Positions 66-47,285 of a stretch of DNA of 47,285 nucleotides are shown in pieces. The position numbers and the translations under genes are program-made. The notes under the pieces were generated by a model. The model was not told where the DNA came from. It did no database searches and saw nothing but the letters and a program-made list of their open reading frames with translations. Source of the stretch: Escherichia phage phiKP26; the sequence record KC579452; one strand, written 5' to 3'. How positions within the stretch are numbered: position 1 is the first letter of the stretch; each line of letters opens with the position of its first letter.

Positions 66-446
66 CAAGTTGAAGTAAAATACGGTGTCGNAGTTAGCAG
101 GATTAGCCGCCATGGCTGGAATGGAGTGGTTGGCATTCGATCTCTATACGAGGCAATAGAAAAGGNCCAGCCATTCGTCGGGCGCGAAGGGATTATGCAT
201 GACCTGACAATTAAANNCATCCCANAAATACAAAAGAGGGGAATNGTTTGCCTCATTGGCGATAAGATTTATGTTCATCCGGCCCTGGTTGAGATGGATA
301 AGGACGACGTGCAAAACTGGTGCAGTCAGTGCCGATCCGACGTGCCACGCTCAAACTACGTGCCACCGCAAACAACAATCCATGGCTATAATGCCGATGA
401 GGTGGAGAAGGCCATACAGTTCTACCGGAAAGCGAAAGCTCTCCCG
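66..446. repeat. Direct repeat copy A (assembly overlap / terminal redundancy); near-identical to 46542-46922
   Basis: Base-by-base match to 46542-46922 at offset 46476; differences cluster at N-containing positions. ORF 30-473 is the repeat image of the C-terminal part of CDS 46389-46961. Confidence 0.85.
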
Positions 447-457
447 AATGGTGAATA

Positions 458-500
458 TAGCACAAATTGCTAAACAATAAATTGGGTAGTCAGCTATGAT
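458..500 (+). promoter_or_regulatory. palindrome/-10 promoter-like element (tagcacaaattgcta-N22-tatgat)
   Basis: Family member; upstream of CDS 531-761. Confidence 0.4.
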
Positions 501-5427: not shown

Positions 5428-6702
5428 ATGGTAAAAGCAGACAGCTACGCAAACATCTTTCTCAACGGGAGTGATGGTAGCGAGATTTACGGAAAGCTTG
5501 GCGGCCTTGGCCTAACAGCTCCAGCGCAGCTTGAGCAGCTTTACGTCAACAGCGCACTGGTTCGCCGAATCATTGATATCGTGCCGGAGGTTGCACTTGG
5601 TGCTGGCTTTAACATCGAAGGCATCAGCGATGAAGGTGCTTTCTGGTCTCGATGGGATGATTTAGACCTTTCAGATAGCGTAATTGACGCCCTGGCGTGG
5701 GCAAGGTTATACGGTGGCGCAGCTGTAGTAGCAATAGTTAAGGATGGTAGGGCGCTAACTAGCCCAGCTCGTGAAGGTGCGGAGCTCGAAACCGTTCGCG
5801 TATACGACCGGCAGCAAGTAAAAGTGCAGACTCGCGAGGAGAATCCACGAAACGCTCGATTTGGTAAGCCATTAACTTACCGCATCACGCCAAATGGTTC
5901 AGCTACGTTCTATGATGTACACTACACACGTTGCCATATCATTGATGGCGAGCGAGTGCCTAACAATTTACGTCGTAATAACGATGGTTGGGGCGCAAGC
6001 GTGCTAACTAGTGACTTAATCGACGCGATTGACGACTATCAGAACTGCGAGAGACTGGCTACTCAGTTACTGCGTCGTAAGCAGCAGGCTGTATGGAAAG
6101 CTAAAGGCCTTGCTGACTTGTGCGATGATTCGGATGGATTTGGCGCGGCTCGTTTACGTCTGGCTCAGGTAGATAATAACAGTGGCGTTGGTCAGGCTAT
6201 CGGGATTGACGCGGAGAGTGAAGAGTACAACGTTCTCAACTCAGATATTGGCGGTATTGATACATTTCTGAGTCAGAAGTTCGATCGAATCGTTGCCCTG
6301 AGCGGCATCCATGAAATTATTCTCAAAGCCAAGAATACTGGCGGTGTATCAGCCAGCCAAAATACGGCTCTGGAAACTTTCTATGGTTACGTTGACCGCA
6401 AGCGCAAGGCTGAATTACTGCCCCTTCTTGAGTTCCTGATTTCATTCATTGTAAGTGAGCAGGAATGGTCAGTAGAATTTAACCCTCTATCGCAGATTAG
6501 CGACAAGGATAAATCTGAGATTCTTGAGAAGAACGTCAATTCAGTTGCCGCATTGATTGCAGCTGGAATCATTGACGCAGACGAAGCAAGAGATACGTTG
6601 CGCGCAATTTCAACTGAGGTTAAGATTGGCGAAGGCTCAATTCAAACGGAGGTTGTAATTAATGAATCAGAAGACCCGCTGGATGTATCCGCAAATAATT
6701 GA
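5428..6702 (+). CDS. portal protein
   Basis: 424-aa ORF directly after the large terminase; size and position typical. Confidence 0.7.
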   Translation: MVKADSYANIFLNGSDGSEIYGKLGGLGLTAPAQLEQLYVNSALVRRIIDIVPEVALGAGFNIEGISDEGAFWSRWDDLDLSDSVIDALAWARLYGGAAVVAIVKDGRALTSPAREGAELETVRVYDRQQVKVQTREENPRNARFGKPLTYRITPNGSATFYDVHYTRCHIIDGERVPNNLRRNNDGWGASVLTSDLIDAIDDYQNCERLATQLLRRKQQAVWKAKGLADLCDDSDGFGAARLRLAQVDNNSGVGQAIGIDAESEEYNVLNSDIGGIDTFLSQKFDRIVALSGIHEIILKAKNTGGVSASQNTALETFYGYVDRKRKAELLPLLEFLISFIVSEQEWSVEFNPLSQISDKDKSEILEKNVNSVAALIAAGIIDADEARDTLRAISTEVKIGEGSIQTEVVINESEDPLDVSANN

Positions 6703-7426
6703 GAGCCAGATTAATCGCAGCCTTTTGGTTGCGGTATCTGAACTTATTGAGCAAATGAAGTTATCTGCAAAGAGGCTAAAAATTGACACAGCGCAGGAGA
6801 TTGAAGAGGAAGATTCAGACCTTTCAGATGTAATCTCAGCGCTGCTATCTGGTTTTGTTTCCACTCTGCCTGCGCTGGCACTAGCAATATATCGTTATAA
6901 CTCGGCGCAATTCCTTAAGGTGGCCAACAACTCCGGAGGTAAGGATAATCCTGTAGTTCTTGCGCTAGGATTGTATGGTATTAACGCGGATGAACCATGG
7001 TGGCTCGACACCAGGAACTCATGGATTGTTGGCACGCAGTTAAGTGCATCAAAGCTGCTAAACAACATCAAGGATGATTTCATAAACAACGCCATTACTG
7101 CGCAGGCTGGTAACACTGTTGACCTTGATGATAGATACCGAATCTACAGAAAGAGAACAGCAAATATCGCTGCTGGAATTACAGGGTCTCTAAACTCAAA
7201 CCTTATGCGGAGAAGGCTTGAAGATGCCGGTGTATCTCAGTATGTTTGGCGTGGTAGACTTGACGACAAAGAGCGACCATCTCACGTTTTGCGTGAGGGG
7301 GTTAGCTTTAAATCAGATGGTTCGGACGCTGGAAAACTTGACGGCCTTGCGATATTCCCCGGTCAGCAATACGGGTGTCGTTGCTGGGCTGTTCCTAAAT
7401 GGGAGAATTTAATTAATGAAGAGTAA
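6662..7426 (+). CDS. head morphogenesis protein (Mu F / SPP1 gp7-like minor head protein)
   Basis: 254 aa after the portal; C-terminal region with the VWRGRLDDKERPSH motif typical of this family. Confidence 0.6.
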   Translation: MNQKTRWMYPQIIESQINRSLLVAVSELIEQMKLSAKRLKIDTAQEIEEEDSDLSDVISALLSGFVSTLPALALAIYRYNSAQFLKVANNSGGKDNPVVLALGLYGINADEPWWLDTRNSWIVGTQLSASKLLNNIKDDFINNAITAQAGNTVDLDDRYRIYRKRTANIAAGITGSLNSNLMRRRLEDAGVSQYVWRGRLDDKERPSHVLREGVSFKSDGSDAGKLDGLAIFPGQQYGCRCWAVPKWENLINEE

Positions 7427-29103: not shown

Positions 29104-29392
29104 AAATAAATAAAGCTGTTCCAAAATAAAAGGGGCCTAAAACCCTAAATAAAACAAAATATGATATGAATTGGGACATATTCTCTGATATNNNGATTGG
29201 TAAGGCGGCGTGGAANTATAGAGAAGAAATACGGCAAGAGTAAATNGGAAGATATAAAGGATAAAAAGGAGGAAAGATTAGAAATGAAGAGATGGAGAGC
29301 GTAAGCATAGGAATTATCGAGCTACCTNCTTTGCTAGCGAGGCGCAAATTAGCTGGTATGACGAAGCATTTCAGGAAGGAAAAGTTATCTCT

Positions 29393-38947: not shown

Positions 38948-39022
38948 CACAAATAGTCAAGAAACTACCAGAAAAAGCAGATGGTGGCAATTCAAACAAA
39001 TGAAAAAGCTAGATGAATNNGA

Positions 39023-41399: not shown

Positions 41400-42989
41400 T
41401 TACCCCAGCAGCCGTGGATTGATATATACCTTGTCACCAATCAGGCAGGTATAGTTTTTATCATCAAGCATCGGGAGTAAGTGGTCTTTAATTTTAGCCA
41501 TAACACCAGCCTGTGACTCGAAAGGTCGAACCTTACGCGCAGCTTCATAAAGTGAGCGCAAACCCACAACTCCTTTACTGTTCTTGCCTTGCTTGATAAG
41601 GATATCAATTAACTTGTTCATCTCAGCGTTATCGCCAGCATGACCAGCTGCGTTAGCAGAAGATAAGTAAGTCTTGCTAAGTTCTTCAAACATCAATAAA
41701 GCCTCCTGCATCGTTTCCAGTCCAATCTCCCTGGACTTCTGCGGACTACCGCCATTTGGATTAAACCAGTTACGTATGGTGTGAAGAACGGCAGCAAGGC
41801 GAATAACCTGCTTATCCATTTTACCTAGTGCGCCACGGAGCATTGTGTGTGAATACTTGCCGCCATCCGCAAGGTGTGGCTCCATTTCCTGTCGAGCACG
41901 GTTAAGGTGCTTCATTGCTGAGTTACTAATAGTCAACTTCACATCTTGCTCACTCATAATTTCATGAACAAGACGGAAGTAATCAGCCTTCAACGCTCCG
42001 TCAATCGGCTCATATGTTGACTCGCCATTATCATCGACGAAAACACGCTCACCAAGGAATGACTTTTCACGCACAAGCAAGAAACGTTCGGATACACCAA
42101 TACCGCGAGCACCAGCATTCATGATTGCGACTATTGTTTCATCCTGCGCAATTACAGAAATACACCCCATAGCAATAAAGCTCATGTTGTTCTCTGCGTT
42201 CGCACGCGCGATAGATACGTTACCAGCATCCCAGGCCTTAAGTACCAGTTCGCTGTTTGTTTNCTTTGTTCCATCACCATAGGTCATGCCAAGCAGTGAG
42301 TTGACGCTCGTCGCCTCATCCGAGATGACAGCGAAGCTACCCTGACGATGGTTAATGCGTGCCAGACCTTCAGGAGTAGTATCAGATACAGGGAATACGA
42401 TGTCGCAAAGTTTCTCGAGCTTATCTTCCAGCTCCTCCTTCTCCTCAAACAAACCAGCCATCTCAGAAGGCGACTTCTCCTGCTTCATTTCTTTAGCCAG
42501 AGCCGACAGCTTGGCCATAATCTTTTTACGGTCACGCTTACGCAGATCGTTTAGTCGCTCAGTCTCTGCAATCATTGGAGCCAGAGACAGCGAGTTAATG
42601 GCGGATTTACCAGTTGATGGAGGCTGGCTGGTCACTACATACAGTGATGTTGGTTGTTGAGTTCCGTGATACTCAACCGTAAAGCGACCTAACATAGCTG
42701 CCGAGATGCAACCAAGGAAGTGCATATAAGCAGATGATTCAGGAAACTGAACAGAACGAGCAATGTTGCTTGATAGTTTGCCAACTACATCATAGTCGTT
42801 ACCAAGCGAGATAACAGGATACTTGTCGCCAGTAGAATCAATCTCAACCGGAGCTTTCCAGAATGATGCGCTCTGGCGATAACCGTTCGCATTAATAGCA
42901 ACACGTAAAGGAGGTAATCCATCCTGAGCGGCAACAGCCATTACTTGTTCAACAGTCAATTTGTCATCATTAAAATCAAACATTATCAT
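41400..42989 (-). CDS. P-loop NTPase of unknown function (Walker A-like PPSTGKS, Walker B-like AVISDEA)
   Basis: 529 aa; N- and C-terminal segments are paralogous to the short protein at 46389-46961. Confidence 0.5.
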   Translation of the reverse strand: MIMFDFNDDKLTVEQVMAVAAQDGLPPLRVAINANGYRQSASFWKAPVEIDSTGDKYPVISLGNDYDVVGKLSSNIARSVQFPESSAYMHFLGCISAAMLGRFTVEYHGTQQPTSLYVVTSQPPSTGKSAINSLSLAPMIAETERLNDLRKRDRKKIMAKLSALAKEMKQEKSPSEMAGLFEEKEELEDKLEKLCDIVFPVSDTTPEGLARINHRQGSFAVISDEATSVNSLLGMTYGDGTKXTNSELVLKAWDAGNVSIARANAENNMSFIAMGCISVIAQDETIVAIMNAGARGIGVSERFLLVREKSFLGERVFVDDNGESTYEPIDGALKADYFRLVHEIMSEQDVKLTISNSAMKHLNRARQEMEPHLADGGKYSHTMLRGALGKMDKQVIRLAAVLHTIRNWFNPNGGSPQKSREIGLETMQEALLMFEELSKTYLSSANAAGHAGDNAEMNKLIDILIKQGKNSKGVVGLRSLYEAARKVRPFESQAGVMAKIKDHLLPMLDDKNYTCLIGDKVYINPRLLG

Positions 42990-44437: not shown

Positions 44438-44587
44438 TTNCTTTGCTGCTTTTGCAATTGCCTTCTGGACGATGTTGAAGCTCTCAATCAAATCTTCTTT
44501 GAAGTAGTCACCAACAGGCCAACCCTTACCGCTGTACTTGGCTATGGTTTCTAGATCGTAATAGTTCAAGTCAGATGGCTTTAGCAT

Positions 44588-44827
44588 TTACTTAACCTCA
44601 TCAAAAGTTGCAATACCAGGAATAAACACTCCAACCTTCCAGCCTGTAATGGCAATCCATCCAGAATCGTGCTTGTGTGGTCGCTCAGCGCCATTAATAA
44701 CCCATTCGTTCGGGATTGCCTTGCCGTTAATGATTAGACGCTCAGCGTCGTATAAAGAGCCTTTTACGAATGGTGTTAGTATTTTCTTGTCGGTACTTGT
44801 AATGCAATTGGTGCAGCGAATTTTCAT
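44588..44827 (-). CDS. hypothetical protein
   Basis: 79-aa ORF; small ORFs flank it (44441-44587 and 44832-45011, the latter Cys-rich). Confidence 0.4.
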   Translation of the reverse strand: MKIRCTNCITSTDKKILTPFVKGSLYDAERLIINGKAIPNEWVINGAERPHKHDSGWIAITGWKVGVFIPGIATFDEVK

Positions 44828-45006
44828 ATCTCAATCCTCAAATAAATGGTAAACATTCGACGCAGCCAAGTCCATCGCAGCACAGAAATTCATCTTCTGA
44901 CTGGAATTGCTTAGCCAAATCAATGTCCAGCTTTCCGCGCAGCACAAGGTTGGTGTAAACTTCGTTAAGTCCAATCAGTGCGCATTCGTGGCGCAACTCG
45001 TCTTTA

Positions 45007-45201
45007 TCAATCTTCATAACGCTCTACCTCGAAGTTGTATACCATTACGTTTCTATCATGCTTGTTCTTTATCACCATTGACTCAAGCTCTTCGTATACA
45101 GCCACTACATTGTAAACACCACCAGGCTCAAGGCCGTAGAATTCGTACTCTTCATCGTCAAAACCATCCGTTTTACTTAGTGCTGTTATTTTNACCTTCA
45201 T
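45007..45201 (-). CDS. hypothetical protein
   Basis: 64 aa; first gene after a full promoter/leader element with RBS (gaggag). Confidence 0.45.
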   Translation of the reverse strand: MKXKITALSKTDGFDDEEYEFYGLEPGGVYNVVAVYEELESMVIKNKHDRNVMVYNFEVERYED

Positions 45202-45228
45202 ATCTATCTCCTCGTTGTTGATGAGTTT

Positions 45229-45272
45229 ACTATAGCCTTGCCATCCCCATTTGTCTTTAGCAAAAAGTGCTA
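45229..45272 (-). promoter_or_regulatory. palindrome/-10 promoter-like element (minus strand), first promoter of the leftward operon from region B
   Basis: Minus reading: tagcactttttgcta-N23-tatagt-aaactcatcaacaacgaggag, then ATG at 45201. Confidence 0.45.
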
Positions 45273-45289
45273 TTCGTCAGATTTATGGA

Positions 45290-45870
45290 TTGTTGCAGGC
45301 ATTGCGATGATTAGCATGACTATTACACATAAAGCAATATTTCATCGATTGCAATGATTTTCTGGACTGTTGCGAATTTATCAATGATTGATGGATTGAT
45401 GGAATGAAGTGAGGGTTGTATCAACTAGTTGGTTGGTTTTAGCTTTCACAAGGAGCTTTCCTTTATGTACGCGTTATGGCTTGTTCAACCGTGTAGAGAA
45501 ATTGCCATATTTACGCCATCCACGCCAGTTTACGCGCTGGTTACAAANTAAATCCCTTATATAACAACCATTTAGATTTATTATTATTATTATTATTATA
45601 TATGTTATTCCGTAACCATGATTATCTGAGATATTGGTGATATTTTTTGATATTGCGCGGCGCATAAAGATTTAGATAAAGAGATAGGGATGCAAGCGGG
45701 GTGGCGAAAATGGCTTAACATACCATAACGGCAATAACAGCCTTGATACGACTAGCGTCAGCATGTAACAATTTAGCATAACGTGCGATTACCGAGTTGA
45801 ACGTGTAAATAACGCTTGCGACATTCACCAATCATGGTAAGATGCTCTCACACCAAACGAGAGGAGTAGT
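45290..45870. promoter_or_regulatory. AT-rich non-coding switch region B, paralogous to 26040-26520 (phased ACGC boxes, (TTA)6 tract); candidate origin
   Basis: ACGC boxes at 45513/45522/45532; ttattattattattattat at 45578-45596 with flanks similar to 26141-26215; tandem gattgatgg x2 near 45390; no credible ORF. Confidence 0.5.
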
Positions 45871-45873
45871 AAA

Positions 45874-46389
45874 ATGAGTAATACAATTCGTGAAGCAAAC
45901 CCGACACTTGGCGACCTGGTGCGGCACCTTGTTAAGATGGCTCTTAATTCAGAGGATGGAAGCGTAACAGTTCCCGTTAAGTTGCTTTACAAGAATCTTT
46001 ACGGAGAAATTGATAACGACTATGTAGCAGCTGACTTTAGACCTGGCGGCAAATATTCACTTCCAAAGCTTAAGGCTTCCTATGTTTCAAATACAGCCAG
46101 CAGAATGCAGGAAGTTAAAGACGCAGATAAGCGCGCAAGGTTCTCTTGTGGAGAGATGGAGTATAATGGTGATGAGCATTATTGCGTAAAAATCACAATG
46201 GTCAACGGTGCTGTTAAGAATGGAACCCGAGCTAAGACAAACAGTCAATTAGAGGAGAAAGCGGTAAGCGAGTTTAAAGCTAGGCTACTTAAGCTTTCCC
46301 CNAGCGTAGCAGGAATGAGTGGAGATGAACTGAAGGGTGCGGTAGCTATGATTAACGCATATCAGGAAATGATTAAGGAGACTAAATAA
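45874..46389 (+). CDS. hypothetical protein
   Basis: 171-aa ORF with a strong RBS (gagaggag); first rightward gene after region B. Confidence 0.5.
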   Translation: MSNTIREANPTLGDLVRHLVKMALNSEDGSVTVPVKLLYKNLYGEIDNDYVAADFRPGGKYSLPKLKASYVSNTASRMQEVKDADKRARFSCGEMEYNGDEHYCVKITMVNGAVKNGTRAKTNSQLEEKAVSEFKARLLKLSXSVAGMSGDELKGAVAMINAYQEMIKETK

Positions 46390-46961
46390 TGTTTGATTTC
46401 AACGAGGATAAGTTAACTGATGACCAGGTGATGGAAGTCGCCAGGCAAGATAACCTGCCGCCACTTCGTGTGGCAATCAGTACTAATGGATACCGCCAAT
46501 CATTCAATTTCTGGCCCAGCGCCGAAGAGATGCTGTGCGTCAAGTTGAGCTACAAATACGGTGTCGTAGTTAGCAGGATTAGCCGCCATGGCTGGAATGG
46601 AGTGGTTGGCATTCGATCTCTATACGAGGCAATNCGAAATGTCCAGCCATTCGTCGGGCGCGAAGGGATTATGCATGACCTGACAATTAACATCATCCCA
46701 GAACTACAAGAGNCGGGAATTGTTNGCCTCATTGGCGATAAGATTTATGTTCATCCGGCCCTGGTTGAGATGGATAAGGACGACGTGCAAAACTGGTGCA
46801 GTCAGTGCCGATCCGACGTGCCACGCTCAAACTACGTGCCACCGCAAACAACAATCCATGGCTATAATGCCGATGAGGTGGAGAAGGCCATACAGTTCTA
46901 CCGGAAAGCGAAAGCTCTCCGAAAGGGGAAATTTAAAAAAAATGAACCATCTATCAATTAA
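46389..46961 (+). CDS. short paralogue of the 529-aa P-loop protein, lacking the ATPase core; 3' end runs into low-quality sequence
   Basis: N-terminus MFDFNEDKLTDDQVMEVARQDNLPPLRVAISTNGYRQS matches the N-terminus of 41400-42989; a later block (VVGIRSLYEA...LIGDKIYVHPAL) matches its C-terminus. In the cleaner repeat copy the ORF ends at 473. Confidence 0.5.
   Translation: MFDFNEDKLTDDQVMEVARQDNLPPLRVAISTNGYRQSFNFWPSAEEMLCVKLSYKYGVVVSRISRHGWNGVVGIRSLYEAXRNVQPFVGREGIMHDLTINIIPELQEXGIVXLIGDKIYVHPALVEMDKDDVQNWCSQCRSDVPRSNYVPPQTTIHGYNADEVEKAIQFYRKAKALRKGKFKKNEPSIN
46542..46922. repeat. Direct repeat copy B (matches 66-446)
   Basis: Same as copy A; after 46922 the sequence degrades instead of continuing as 447 onward. 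Confidence 0.85.
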
Positions 46962-47285
46962 AAAAAATAAGTNANNAACCCCCACCACCAAAAAAACCAN
47001 NAACACANNNANAAATAACAACAAATAACAACCAAAAACCCANNNAAAAACANCAACACAACANCACNAANAANNCNCCACANAANAAAGGACAAATAAC
47101 ANNAGGATGCGAAGANACGNAGNNNNGCNNNNAGTANNCTNCGCAANNNNNGACAGGCNNNGGTGGACCCTCGTCACCGTAACACTTACAGGTACGCACG
47201 GACGGTAACGGTCGGACGAGGCAGGGTACGTACGGTCGGTAGGGACGGCGGGTACCTAGGTAGGGGTACTTTCGGAACGGTAACG
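46923..47285. other. Low-quality / artefactual sequence tail (N-rich, A/C homopolymer-rich)
   Basis: Dense Ns, poly-A and poly-C runs, no coherent reading frame; the ORFs predicted here are full of X. Confidence 0.8.

Follow-up and report, generated by a model that had tools for sequence, protein, structure and literature searches.

The stretch of DNA considered here (the window; 47,285 nucleotides (nt) of Escherichia phage phiKP26, sequence record KC579452) is a T1-like coliphage sequence whose assembly is of low quality, contains N and wraps around. T1-like phages (Drexlerviridae) are common among coliphages and are used in phage therapy, and the window matches Escherichia phage C119 (Rogunavirus, Drexlerviridae), with ~99.1-99.8% identity across most of the length and 98.1% in one 2.7-kb block. 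On the + strand, directly behind a gene for a DUF7174 protein, lies a short open reading frame (ORF) starting at 46389, which is identical to gp59 of C119, a protein of 186 amino acids annotated 'hypothetical protein'. Judged from its sequence, this short protein is a paralogue of the 529-residue DUF3987 helicase encoded by the same phage, in which the whole ATPase module has been lost and both terminal modules have been kept. As the short gene is a separate gene on the opposite strand, 3.4 kb from that of the helicase, it is not a nested isoform made from an internal start, a possibility that was tested.

The first-pass annotation had described this architecture as ~45 shared N-terminal residues, a later block equivalent to the extreme C-terminus of the 529-residue protein and a missing Walker A/B core, and had read it as a duplicated gene that lost its ATPase domain; BLASTP, Pfam, profile comparison and hhalign all bear this out. 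In BLASTP, residues 1-48 of the short protein align with residues 3-50 of the helicase (33/48 identical, 69%; E 5e-20) and residues 71-126 with helicase residues 473-528 (26/56 identical, 46%; E 3e-15), and neither block is of low complexity. Profile methods stretch the second block to take in the helix preceding the winged helix: positions 41-128 of PHROG 7327 are matched by helicase residues 440-527, and hhalign pairs residues 56-128 of the short protein with helicase residues 454-527 (probability 99.3%, E 8e-21). The short protein belongs to PHROG 7327, whose profile it matches in full (residues 1-181 on positions 1-179 of 179, E 1.3e-98); it carries the N-domain motif LPPLRVAI.ANGYRQS..FW and has zero Pfam matches at E <= 0.1. 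Helicase residues 83-435, which form the DUF3987 domain, have no counterpart in it, and Walker A (QPPSTGKS) and Walker B (VISDEAT), sought in the short sequence, are both missing. A test for the ATPase core that defines DUF3987 or superfamily 6 helicases showed it to be absent, and the short protein is thus not classed among them; without this core, ATP binding and DNA unwinding should be impossible in principle. Searching the PDB by sequence gave zero matches for the helicase, the profile of the short family and the DUF7174 protein, as did a search of NCBIfam. A relationship to phage primases, raised by a weak BFVD match to a Vibrio phage 'primase', was rejected (hhalign probability 0.3%). 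No published description of the short gene, or of its relation to the DUF3987 helicase, was found in the literature searched.

The parent protein matches Pfam DUF3987 (PF13148) with 3.4e-42 and has both Walker motifs. DUF3987 proteins have been assigned to the superfamily 6 (minichromosome maintenance (MCM)-like) replicative helicases with a C-terminal winged helix (PMC4889955), an assignment with which the AlphaFold2 model of the helicase agrees (mean predicted local distance difference test score (pLDDT) 88.7, predicted template modelling score (pTM) 0.86), and one PriCT-DUF3987 protein is a Walker-motif-dependent 5'-3' helicase (PMC11724360). The mechanically called helicase ORF begins MIMFDF, and relatives, for example in AHS24, are annotated from the second ATG (MFDF...); translation probably starts at this second ATG, so that the first two codons are not translated and the helicase and the short protein are therefore colinear from residue 1. 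Compared with the DUF3987 helicases that phages and mobile elements encode (PHROG 2373; e.g. T1 ST9 and AgaPH), the short protein shares the two non-catalytic appendages and the genome, but has no AAA+ core, is a third of the length, bears an extra C-terminal helix and has an acidic instead of a basic winged helix. The phage also encodes a primase and a second, SNF2-type helicase, which are gp30 and gp32 in C119; neither a polymerase nor a recognisable initiator or loader was found among its genes. In phage Jk06 (NC_007291, 1901-3492), three overlapping ORFs (JK_55, JK_54 and JK_52) stand in place of a single DUF3987 helicase gene, which probably reflects frameshift errors of an old sequence and not biology.

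Table 1. Coordinates in the window of the short gene, its parent helicase gene and their surroundings (residue numbers are those of the respective protein).
Feature	Position	Strand	Remarks
Short helicase paralogue, window-end copy	46389..46961	+	C119 gp59; PHROG 7327; reliable to ~46930
Cleaner copy, 3' two-thirds of the short gene	66..473	+	Residues ~52-186; true stop 471-473; from the wrap-around
N-terminal mini-domain, short protein residues 1-48	46389..46532	+	Homology with the N-terminus of the helicase
Basic connecting segment and helix, short protein residues 49-70	46533..46598	+	Equivalent of helicase helix 451-468
Winged-helix domain, short protein residues 71-128	46599..46772	+	Homologous to the extreme C-terminus of the helicase
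Family-specific C-terminal tail, short protein residues 129-186 and stop	297..473	+	Corrupted duplicate at 46773-46943
DUF3987 helicase, MCM-like, superfamily 6	41400..42989	-	C119 gp49; likely start ATG 42983
Helicase N-terminal mini-domain, residues 3-50	42840..42983	-	Common to the short protein
Helicase DUF3987/AAA+ motor, residues 83-435	41685..42743	-	Missing from the short paralogue
Helicase C-terminal helix and winged helix, residues 440-528	41406..41672	-	Common to the short protein
DUF7174 gene	45874..46389	+	C119 gp58; PHROG 4841; rtp1-like; TAATG overlap with the short gene
Divergent intergenic region between the two gene blocks	45202..45873		Promoter-like sites only

The window-end copy of the short gene has to be read with the assembly in mind. 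Positions 46541-46930 repeat positions 66-455 at 94% identity, positions 1-65 and 46931-47285 have no match in the C119 reference, and N accounts for 44 of the last 324 bases; with the wrap-around removed, the unit is ~46.5 kb long. Because of this repeat and of flanking ends that match nothing in C119, the 'genome-unit boundary' at which the gene had initially been placed is the cut point of a circular or permuted assembly and not a biological boundary, and this cut point sits within the short gene itself. The final ~10 codons and the stop codon of the window-end copy (its last ~30 bases) are a read-end artefact, which also disposes of the end coordinate first assigned to it, 46961; the true C-terminus, read from the clean copy at the window start, is ...AKALPNGEYSTNC, with the stop codon at 471-473. 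That the gene as a whole might be an assembly or sequencing artefact of a low-quality window end, which is indeed N-rich and whose final ~350 bases match no relative, is refuted and keeps a practically negligible probability, as the gene is intact in the clean genomes of C119, AHS24, Jk06 and phiJLA23, a second copy of its 3' part lies at the window start and 311 homologues are present in public data.

These homologues, of ~164-191 residues, were collected from 5.8 billion clustered proteins, and the long contigs that carry them are always 45-52 kb and T1-like. When 1.84 billion cluster representatives were searched exhaustively with a profile, only 53 hits were obtained, all of them members of the short family, fragments or DUF3987 helicases of T1-like phages; the short-protein family is confined to T1-like phages. 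Members down to ~20-25% identity retain the N-domain, the winged helix and a tail helix. A scan of all 80 helicase loci in IMG/VR with the termini of their own helicases identified paralogues only where the helicase starts MFDFN[ED]DKL, and wherever the short gene is present, the helicase N-terminus is near-invariant. Scanning IMG/VR again with an alignment of divergent members yielded zero further genomes, and most of the divergent members are found on 1-3 kb contigs without a helicase. In a neighbour-joining tree of the shared blocks, which is rough and open to long-branch effects, the short proteins form one long-branched group beside the clade of 'MFDF...' helicases.

Within the short gene, pairwise ratios of non-synonymous to synonymous substitution rates (dN/dS) are 0.11-0.49, against 0.01-0.05 for the helicases of these genome pairs, with dS saturated, which indicates purifying selection ~ten times weaker than on the helicase. 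In nucleotide terms, the short gene and the helicase gene are 61% identical over the N block and 54% over the C block, and 21 of the 33 codons for identical amino acids in the N block differ synonymously; the duplication is ancient, because synonymous sites are saturated, and the N block has been preserved at the protein level despite this saturation. A recent duplication or ongoing gene conversion is ruled out in phiKP26 by the same figures, with the N block at 61% and most identical residues encoded by different codons. The gene is thus genuine, conserved and selected. A decaying duplicate without a role of its own might account for a dN/dS higher than that of the helicase, for the repeated loss and truncation described below and for the unrelated cargo that occupies the gene's slot in other phages, but we consider such a relic very improbable: dN/dS remains well under 1 at saturated dS, length and three-module architecture persist in the most diverged members, conservation extends to the added tail helix, the fold is predicted with confidence and a good Shine-Dalgarno sequence precedes the start codon.

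The AlphaFold2 model of the short protein, built on a 54-sequence alignment, has a mean pLDDT of 84, with residues 10-140 mostly above 90. The order of secondary structure elements equals that at the two ends of the helicase model: the N-terminal helices 11-21 and 25-33 occupy the same positions in both proteins, helix 55-67, strand 72-74 and helix 75-82 of the short protein correspond to helix 451-468, strand 472-474 and helix 475-482 of the helicase, and helix 94-108 with strands 112-115 and 118-121 to helix 494-508 with strands 512-515 and 518-521. A further helix is predicted at residues 45-49 in the connecting segment. The N-domain and the C-terminal helix and winged helix are predicted to fold into one compact domain of ~130 residues, and high pLDDT and pTM values suggest packing of the N-terminal helices against the winged helix, in the helicase too. 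The winged-helix part is a three-helix bundle with a beta-hairpin wing in the order H-S-H-H-S-S (helix, H; strand, S), and its fold matches the winged-helix domains of ORC/Cdc6 as well as MarR-type regulators, at 8-15% sequence identity with ORC/Cdc6 and MCM. Past residue ~128 follows a tail of ~58 residues, composed of a variable linker and a conserved amphipathic helix at residues 161-176 (..Y.ADEVEKAIEFYRKAK.L). This tail has no counterpart elsewhere in the window by tblastn and no third aligned segment in the helicase by hhalign, and the helix is a new C-terminal element gained by the short-protein family.

ORC/Cdc6 winged helices bind origin DNA via basic surfaces, which the short protein does not have. 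Taking charge as a sequence proxy, a basic recognition helix or wing of the kind seen in DNA-binding winged helices is lacking: the net charge of the third helix averages -2.1 among the 54 family members (-4 to 0, never positive), and the whole winged helix averages +0.7 in the short proteins versus +3.4 in the helicases. Because the positive charge of the winged helix has been lost and a search turned up no nearby repeats suited as binding sites, protein-protein contacts appear more likely than DNA contacts, and DNA binding unlikely. A DNA-binding competitor or regulator, in which the winged helix would bind the helicase's origin or DNA structure, or an operator, and thereby block or time replication initiation or repress transcription, has a comparable precedent in OBPC of herpes simplex virus 1 (HSV-1), which acts on UL9. 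Such a role, which we regard as quite unlikely, fits the resemblance to ORC/Cdc6 winged helices and MarR-type regulators, both DNA binders, the basic winged helix of the helicase itself (isoelectric point (pI) 9.4) and the basic segment that precedes the winged helix in the short protein (net +3.5). It sits poorly with the pI of the short protein (5.4) and of its winged helix (5.05), with a third helix devoid of net positive charge in 54/54 members and with the view that the MCM-type C-terminal winged helix is mainly loading or regulatory in function (PMC4619765). In addition, a search for iterons and other repeats in the 750-bp divergent intergenic region next to the gene pair gave short two-copy matches only, typical of chance, and, without iteron-like repeats, therefore no origin-like target for the winged helix; promoters in the intergenic region amount to consensus-like sites only.

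The short gene is tightly linked to the DUF7174 gene. In the window, the DUF7174 stop codon and the start codon of the short gene overlap by one base (TAATG), with a Shine-Dalgarno sequence (AAGGAG) 8 nt before the ATG of the short gene, and the order DUF7174 gene followed by short gene is kept in every lineage examined that has the short gene, very divergent members included. The same TAATG overlap is present in C119, AHS24, Jk06, XT34 (Nouzillyvirus), UALMA_PCEc3, Veterinaerplatzvirus 12210III and AKS96, on a 45-kb metagenomic contig and on the contig of a divergent member (P0247); the two genes are adjacent in L122 as well, and adjoin each other with a 220-nt gap on the contig of another member (P0270). 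The short protein is thus probably made together with the DUF7174 protein and possibly forms a complex with it. The pair is transcribed away from the ~670-bp intergenic region, and the block of small genes that ends with the helicase gene runs the opposite way, in line with the opposite-strand arrangement noted in the first-pass annotation. In T1, the corresponding intergenic region contains the physical left end of the genome, which, like the start of the 2.8-kb terminal repeat, is located ~540 bp upstream of the counterpart of the first gene; because of this, the short gene is probably among the terminal-repeat genes, and its position suggests that it is probably expressed early.

The distribution of the gene is patchy. 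A full-length copy, defined as a match to at least 80% of the short protein, is present in 103 of the 752 phage records with helicase-type hits and lacking in the other 649. In Rtp (NC_007603, 1064-1383), rtp1 (DUF7174) is followed by rtp2, a 19-codon stub (MFDFTEEKLTDEQVMRIVE*), and then by a lipoprotein-like gene, and one IMG/VR locus (L019) has a multi-stop pseudogene of the short gene. Two lineages (L013, and L014, which is the same phage as L006, Veterinaerplatzvirus 12210III) have in-frame stops at adjacent codons of the hinge between core and tail (...YEG-TAG-HASRLPYH... and ...VYE-TGA-EHPSRLPYH...), with the conserved tail still in frame downstream, which may represent either recent independent truncations or stop-codon read-through giving two isoforms. 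Elsewhere in the Drexlerviridae (L026-L056, IMG/VR), the slot after the DUF7174 gene holds unrelated small genes, often with the same 1-nt overlap, including lipoproteins similar to Rtp rtp3, ~40-residue membrane proteins and ORFs of 61-77 residues, and so looks like a hotspot for accessory genes. At one locus (L021), the replacement ORF in the slot still starts MFDLDE, and exchange of cargo thus leaves first codons behind. The second gene of T1, ST76 (108 residues; NC_005833, 1127-1453), occupies the same slot and starts MFNIKP, the first six residues of the T1 DUF3987 helicase ST9 (44517-46085), with 16 of 18 nt identical. ST76 was considered as a diverged full family member and rejected (hhalign probability 0.2%, only the first 6 residues match); its start might be what is left of a T1-type short paralogue, stem from recombination at the 5' end or be due to chance.

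Where the gene is present, its body can differ greatly between close relatives. C119 and AKS96, which belong to the same genus, have helicases that are 99.4% identical and DUF7174 proteins that are 100% identical, whereas their short proteins are 49% identical over 141 residues, with unrelated tails. At the DNA level (C119 7701-9001 versus AKS96 6051-7350), 96% identity extends through the DUF7174 gene and 112 nt of the short gene, collapses past this point and resumes at the 3' end of the short gene. Because identity is lost inside the gene and regained at its 3' end, winged helix and tail are exchanged as a cassette, with crossover in the conserved block that encodes the N-terminus. The allele of the AKS96 type is nearer to its own helicase, with 67-70% identity in the winged helix and 68-76% in the N block. 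The short gene is thus accessory, dispensable and diversifying. Because the N-domain is invariant while the winged helix and tail are swapped as a cassette, the protein suggests an 'anchor plus variable specificity' design.

The reading that we tentatively favour, while granting it rather less than an even chance, is that of an accessory protein that acts in trans, via protein-protein contacts, on whatever docks the helicase termini. The gene originated in an old duplication of the gene for the MCM-like DUF3987 helicase, followed by loss of the entire AAA+ motor. Its near-invariant N-domain would dock where the N-terminus of the helicase docks, on neighbouring helicase subunits or on a loading or priming partner, and the short protein would hence either join or compete with the helicase at its assembly and loading step, with winged helix and tail determining which variable partner, a factor of the host or of a rival phage, is recognised. 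The C-terminal winged helix of MCM is dispensable for unwinding, auto-inhibitory and thought to act in loading or activation (PMC4619765), and by analogy, assembly or loading would be the step that a free copy of such helicase appendages affects in trans. Several points weigh against this reading: a binder of the helicase would be expected wherever the helicase is conserved, and only the N-domain behaves in this way; a mimic or decoy of the winged helix would be expected to resemble that of the helicase, and identity is only 46% in phiKP26 (70% for the AKS96 allele); and the early timing is read from gene position only. The ideas put forward in the first-pass annotation, an ATPase-less regulatory or dominant-negative partner or a decoy, are likewise complicated by a dispensable and patchy gene, by a winged helix that is 46% identical and has lost its positive charge and by a gene body that differs greatly between phages with near-identical helicases.

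A positive co-factor is possible, if doubtful: the short protein, perhaps with the DUF7174 protein, would be a Cdt1-like adaptor or assembly chaperone that loads or assembles the phage's own helicase, with the shared N-domain and winged helix joining or bridging helicase subunits. The precedent is Cdt1, a stand-alone, ATPase-less, winged-helix protein that loads MCM2-7 by binding the C-terminal domain of Mcm6 (PMC3326298), and the strong conservation of the N-domain in short protein and helicase, the translational coupling to a conserved upstream DUF7174 gene and the lack of a recognisable initiator or loader in T1-like phages are all compatible with such a function. A co-factor is hard to reconcile, however, with the 649 of 752 records that have no full-length copy and with the deletion, pseudogenisation or truncation of the gene in several lineages, and a 51% difference between phages with 99.4% identical helicases is unexpected for the partner of an invariant helicase. 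The likeness to Cdt1 has further limits, as the two proteins are unrelated in sequence, and Cdt1 did not arise from its helicase and is essential, in contrast to the dispensable and patchy short gene.

With a rather low probability, the short gene may instead be a conflict gene, encoding a trans-acting mimic of the helicase docking module that either shields the helicase or poisons helicase assembly of co-infecting T1-like phages. As a shield, it would protect the helicase from a host defence, or an inhibitor of a rival phage, that targets the helicase termini; the N-domain would again be the anchor, and the cassette-swapped winged helix and tail would be the fast-evolving specificity part. 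A conflict role would explain the hypervariable early-gene slot, which elsewhere holds lipoproteins and small membrane proteins, the roughly half-different body between phages with 99.4% identical helicases and the first-codon remnants where the short gene has been replaced.

In principle, and by analogy, the short protein resembles other motor-less relatives of replication proteins. Partial viral replication proteins include OBPC/UL8.5 relative to UL9 in HSV-1, gp4B relative to gp4A in T7 and the small Rep proteins of adeno-associated virus (AAV), shorter relatives with only some of the domains that are able to modulate replication. These are nested in-frame products of one gene that lack one end, whereas the short gene is separate, anciently diverged and located on the other strand, and its product keeps both ends, deletes the middle, gains a tail and occurs as cassette-like alleles.

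T1-like phages have no polymerase of their own and replicate with an MCM-like helicase, and a natural motor-deleted copy would mark the docking or regulatory modules of this helicase and would therefore be a ready probe for what loads or regulates a bacterial-virus MCM. If the short protein were a true conflict factor, it would belong to a novel class of factors, built from a replication protein, with which phages achieve counter-defence or exclusion, with replication-protein appendages recycled as decoys or poisons. A testable hypothesis is now attached to PHROG 7327, and possibly to DUF7174, both without an annotated function. Cultured carriers of the short gene include C119, AHS24, AKS96 and the BASEL phage JulesPiccard (Bas03), and Rtp is a natural loss.

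Beyond the short gene, the window differs from C119 at two places, where ~0.5 kb (C119 21557-22067) is absent at ~29286-29289 and ~0.3 kb (C119 31747-32063) at ~38969-38993. Both stretches present only in C119 overlap annotated HNH endonuclease genes, gp27 and gp41, and the two phages therefore differ by presence or absence of homing endonucleases.

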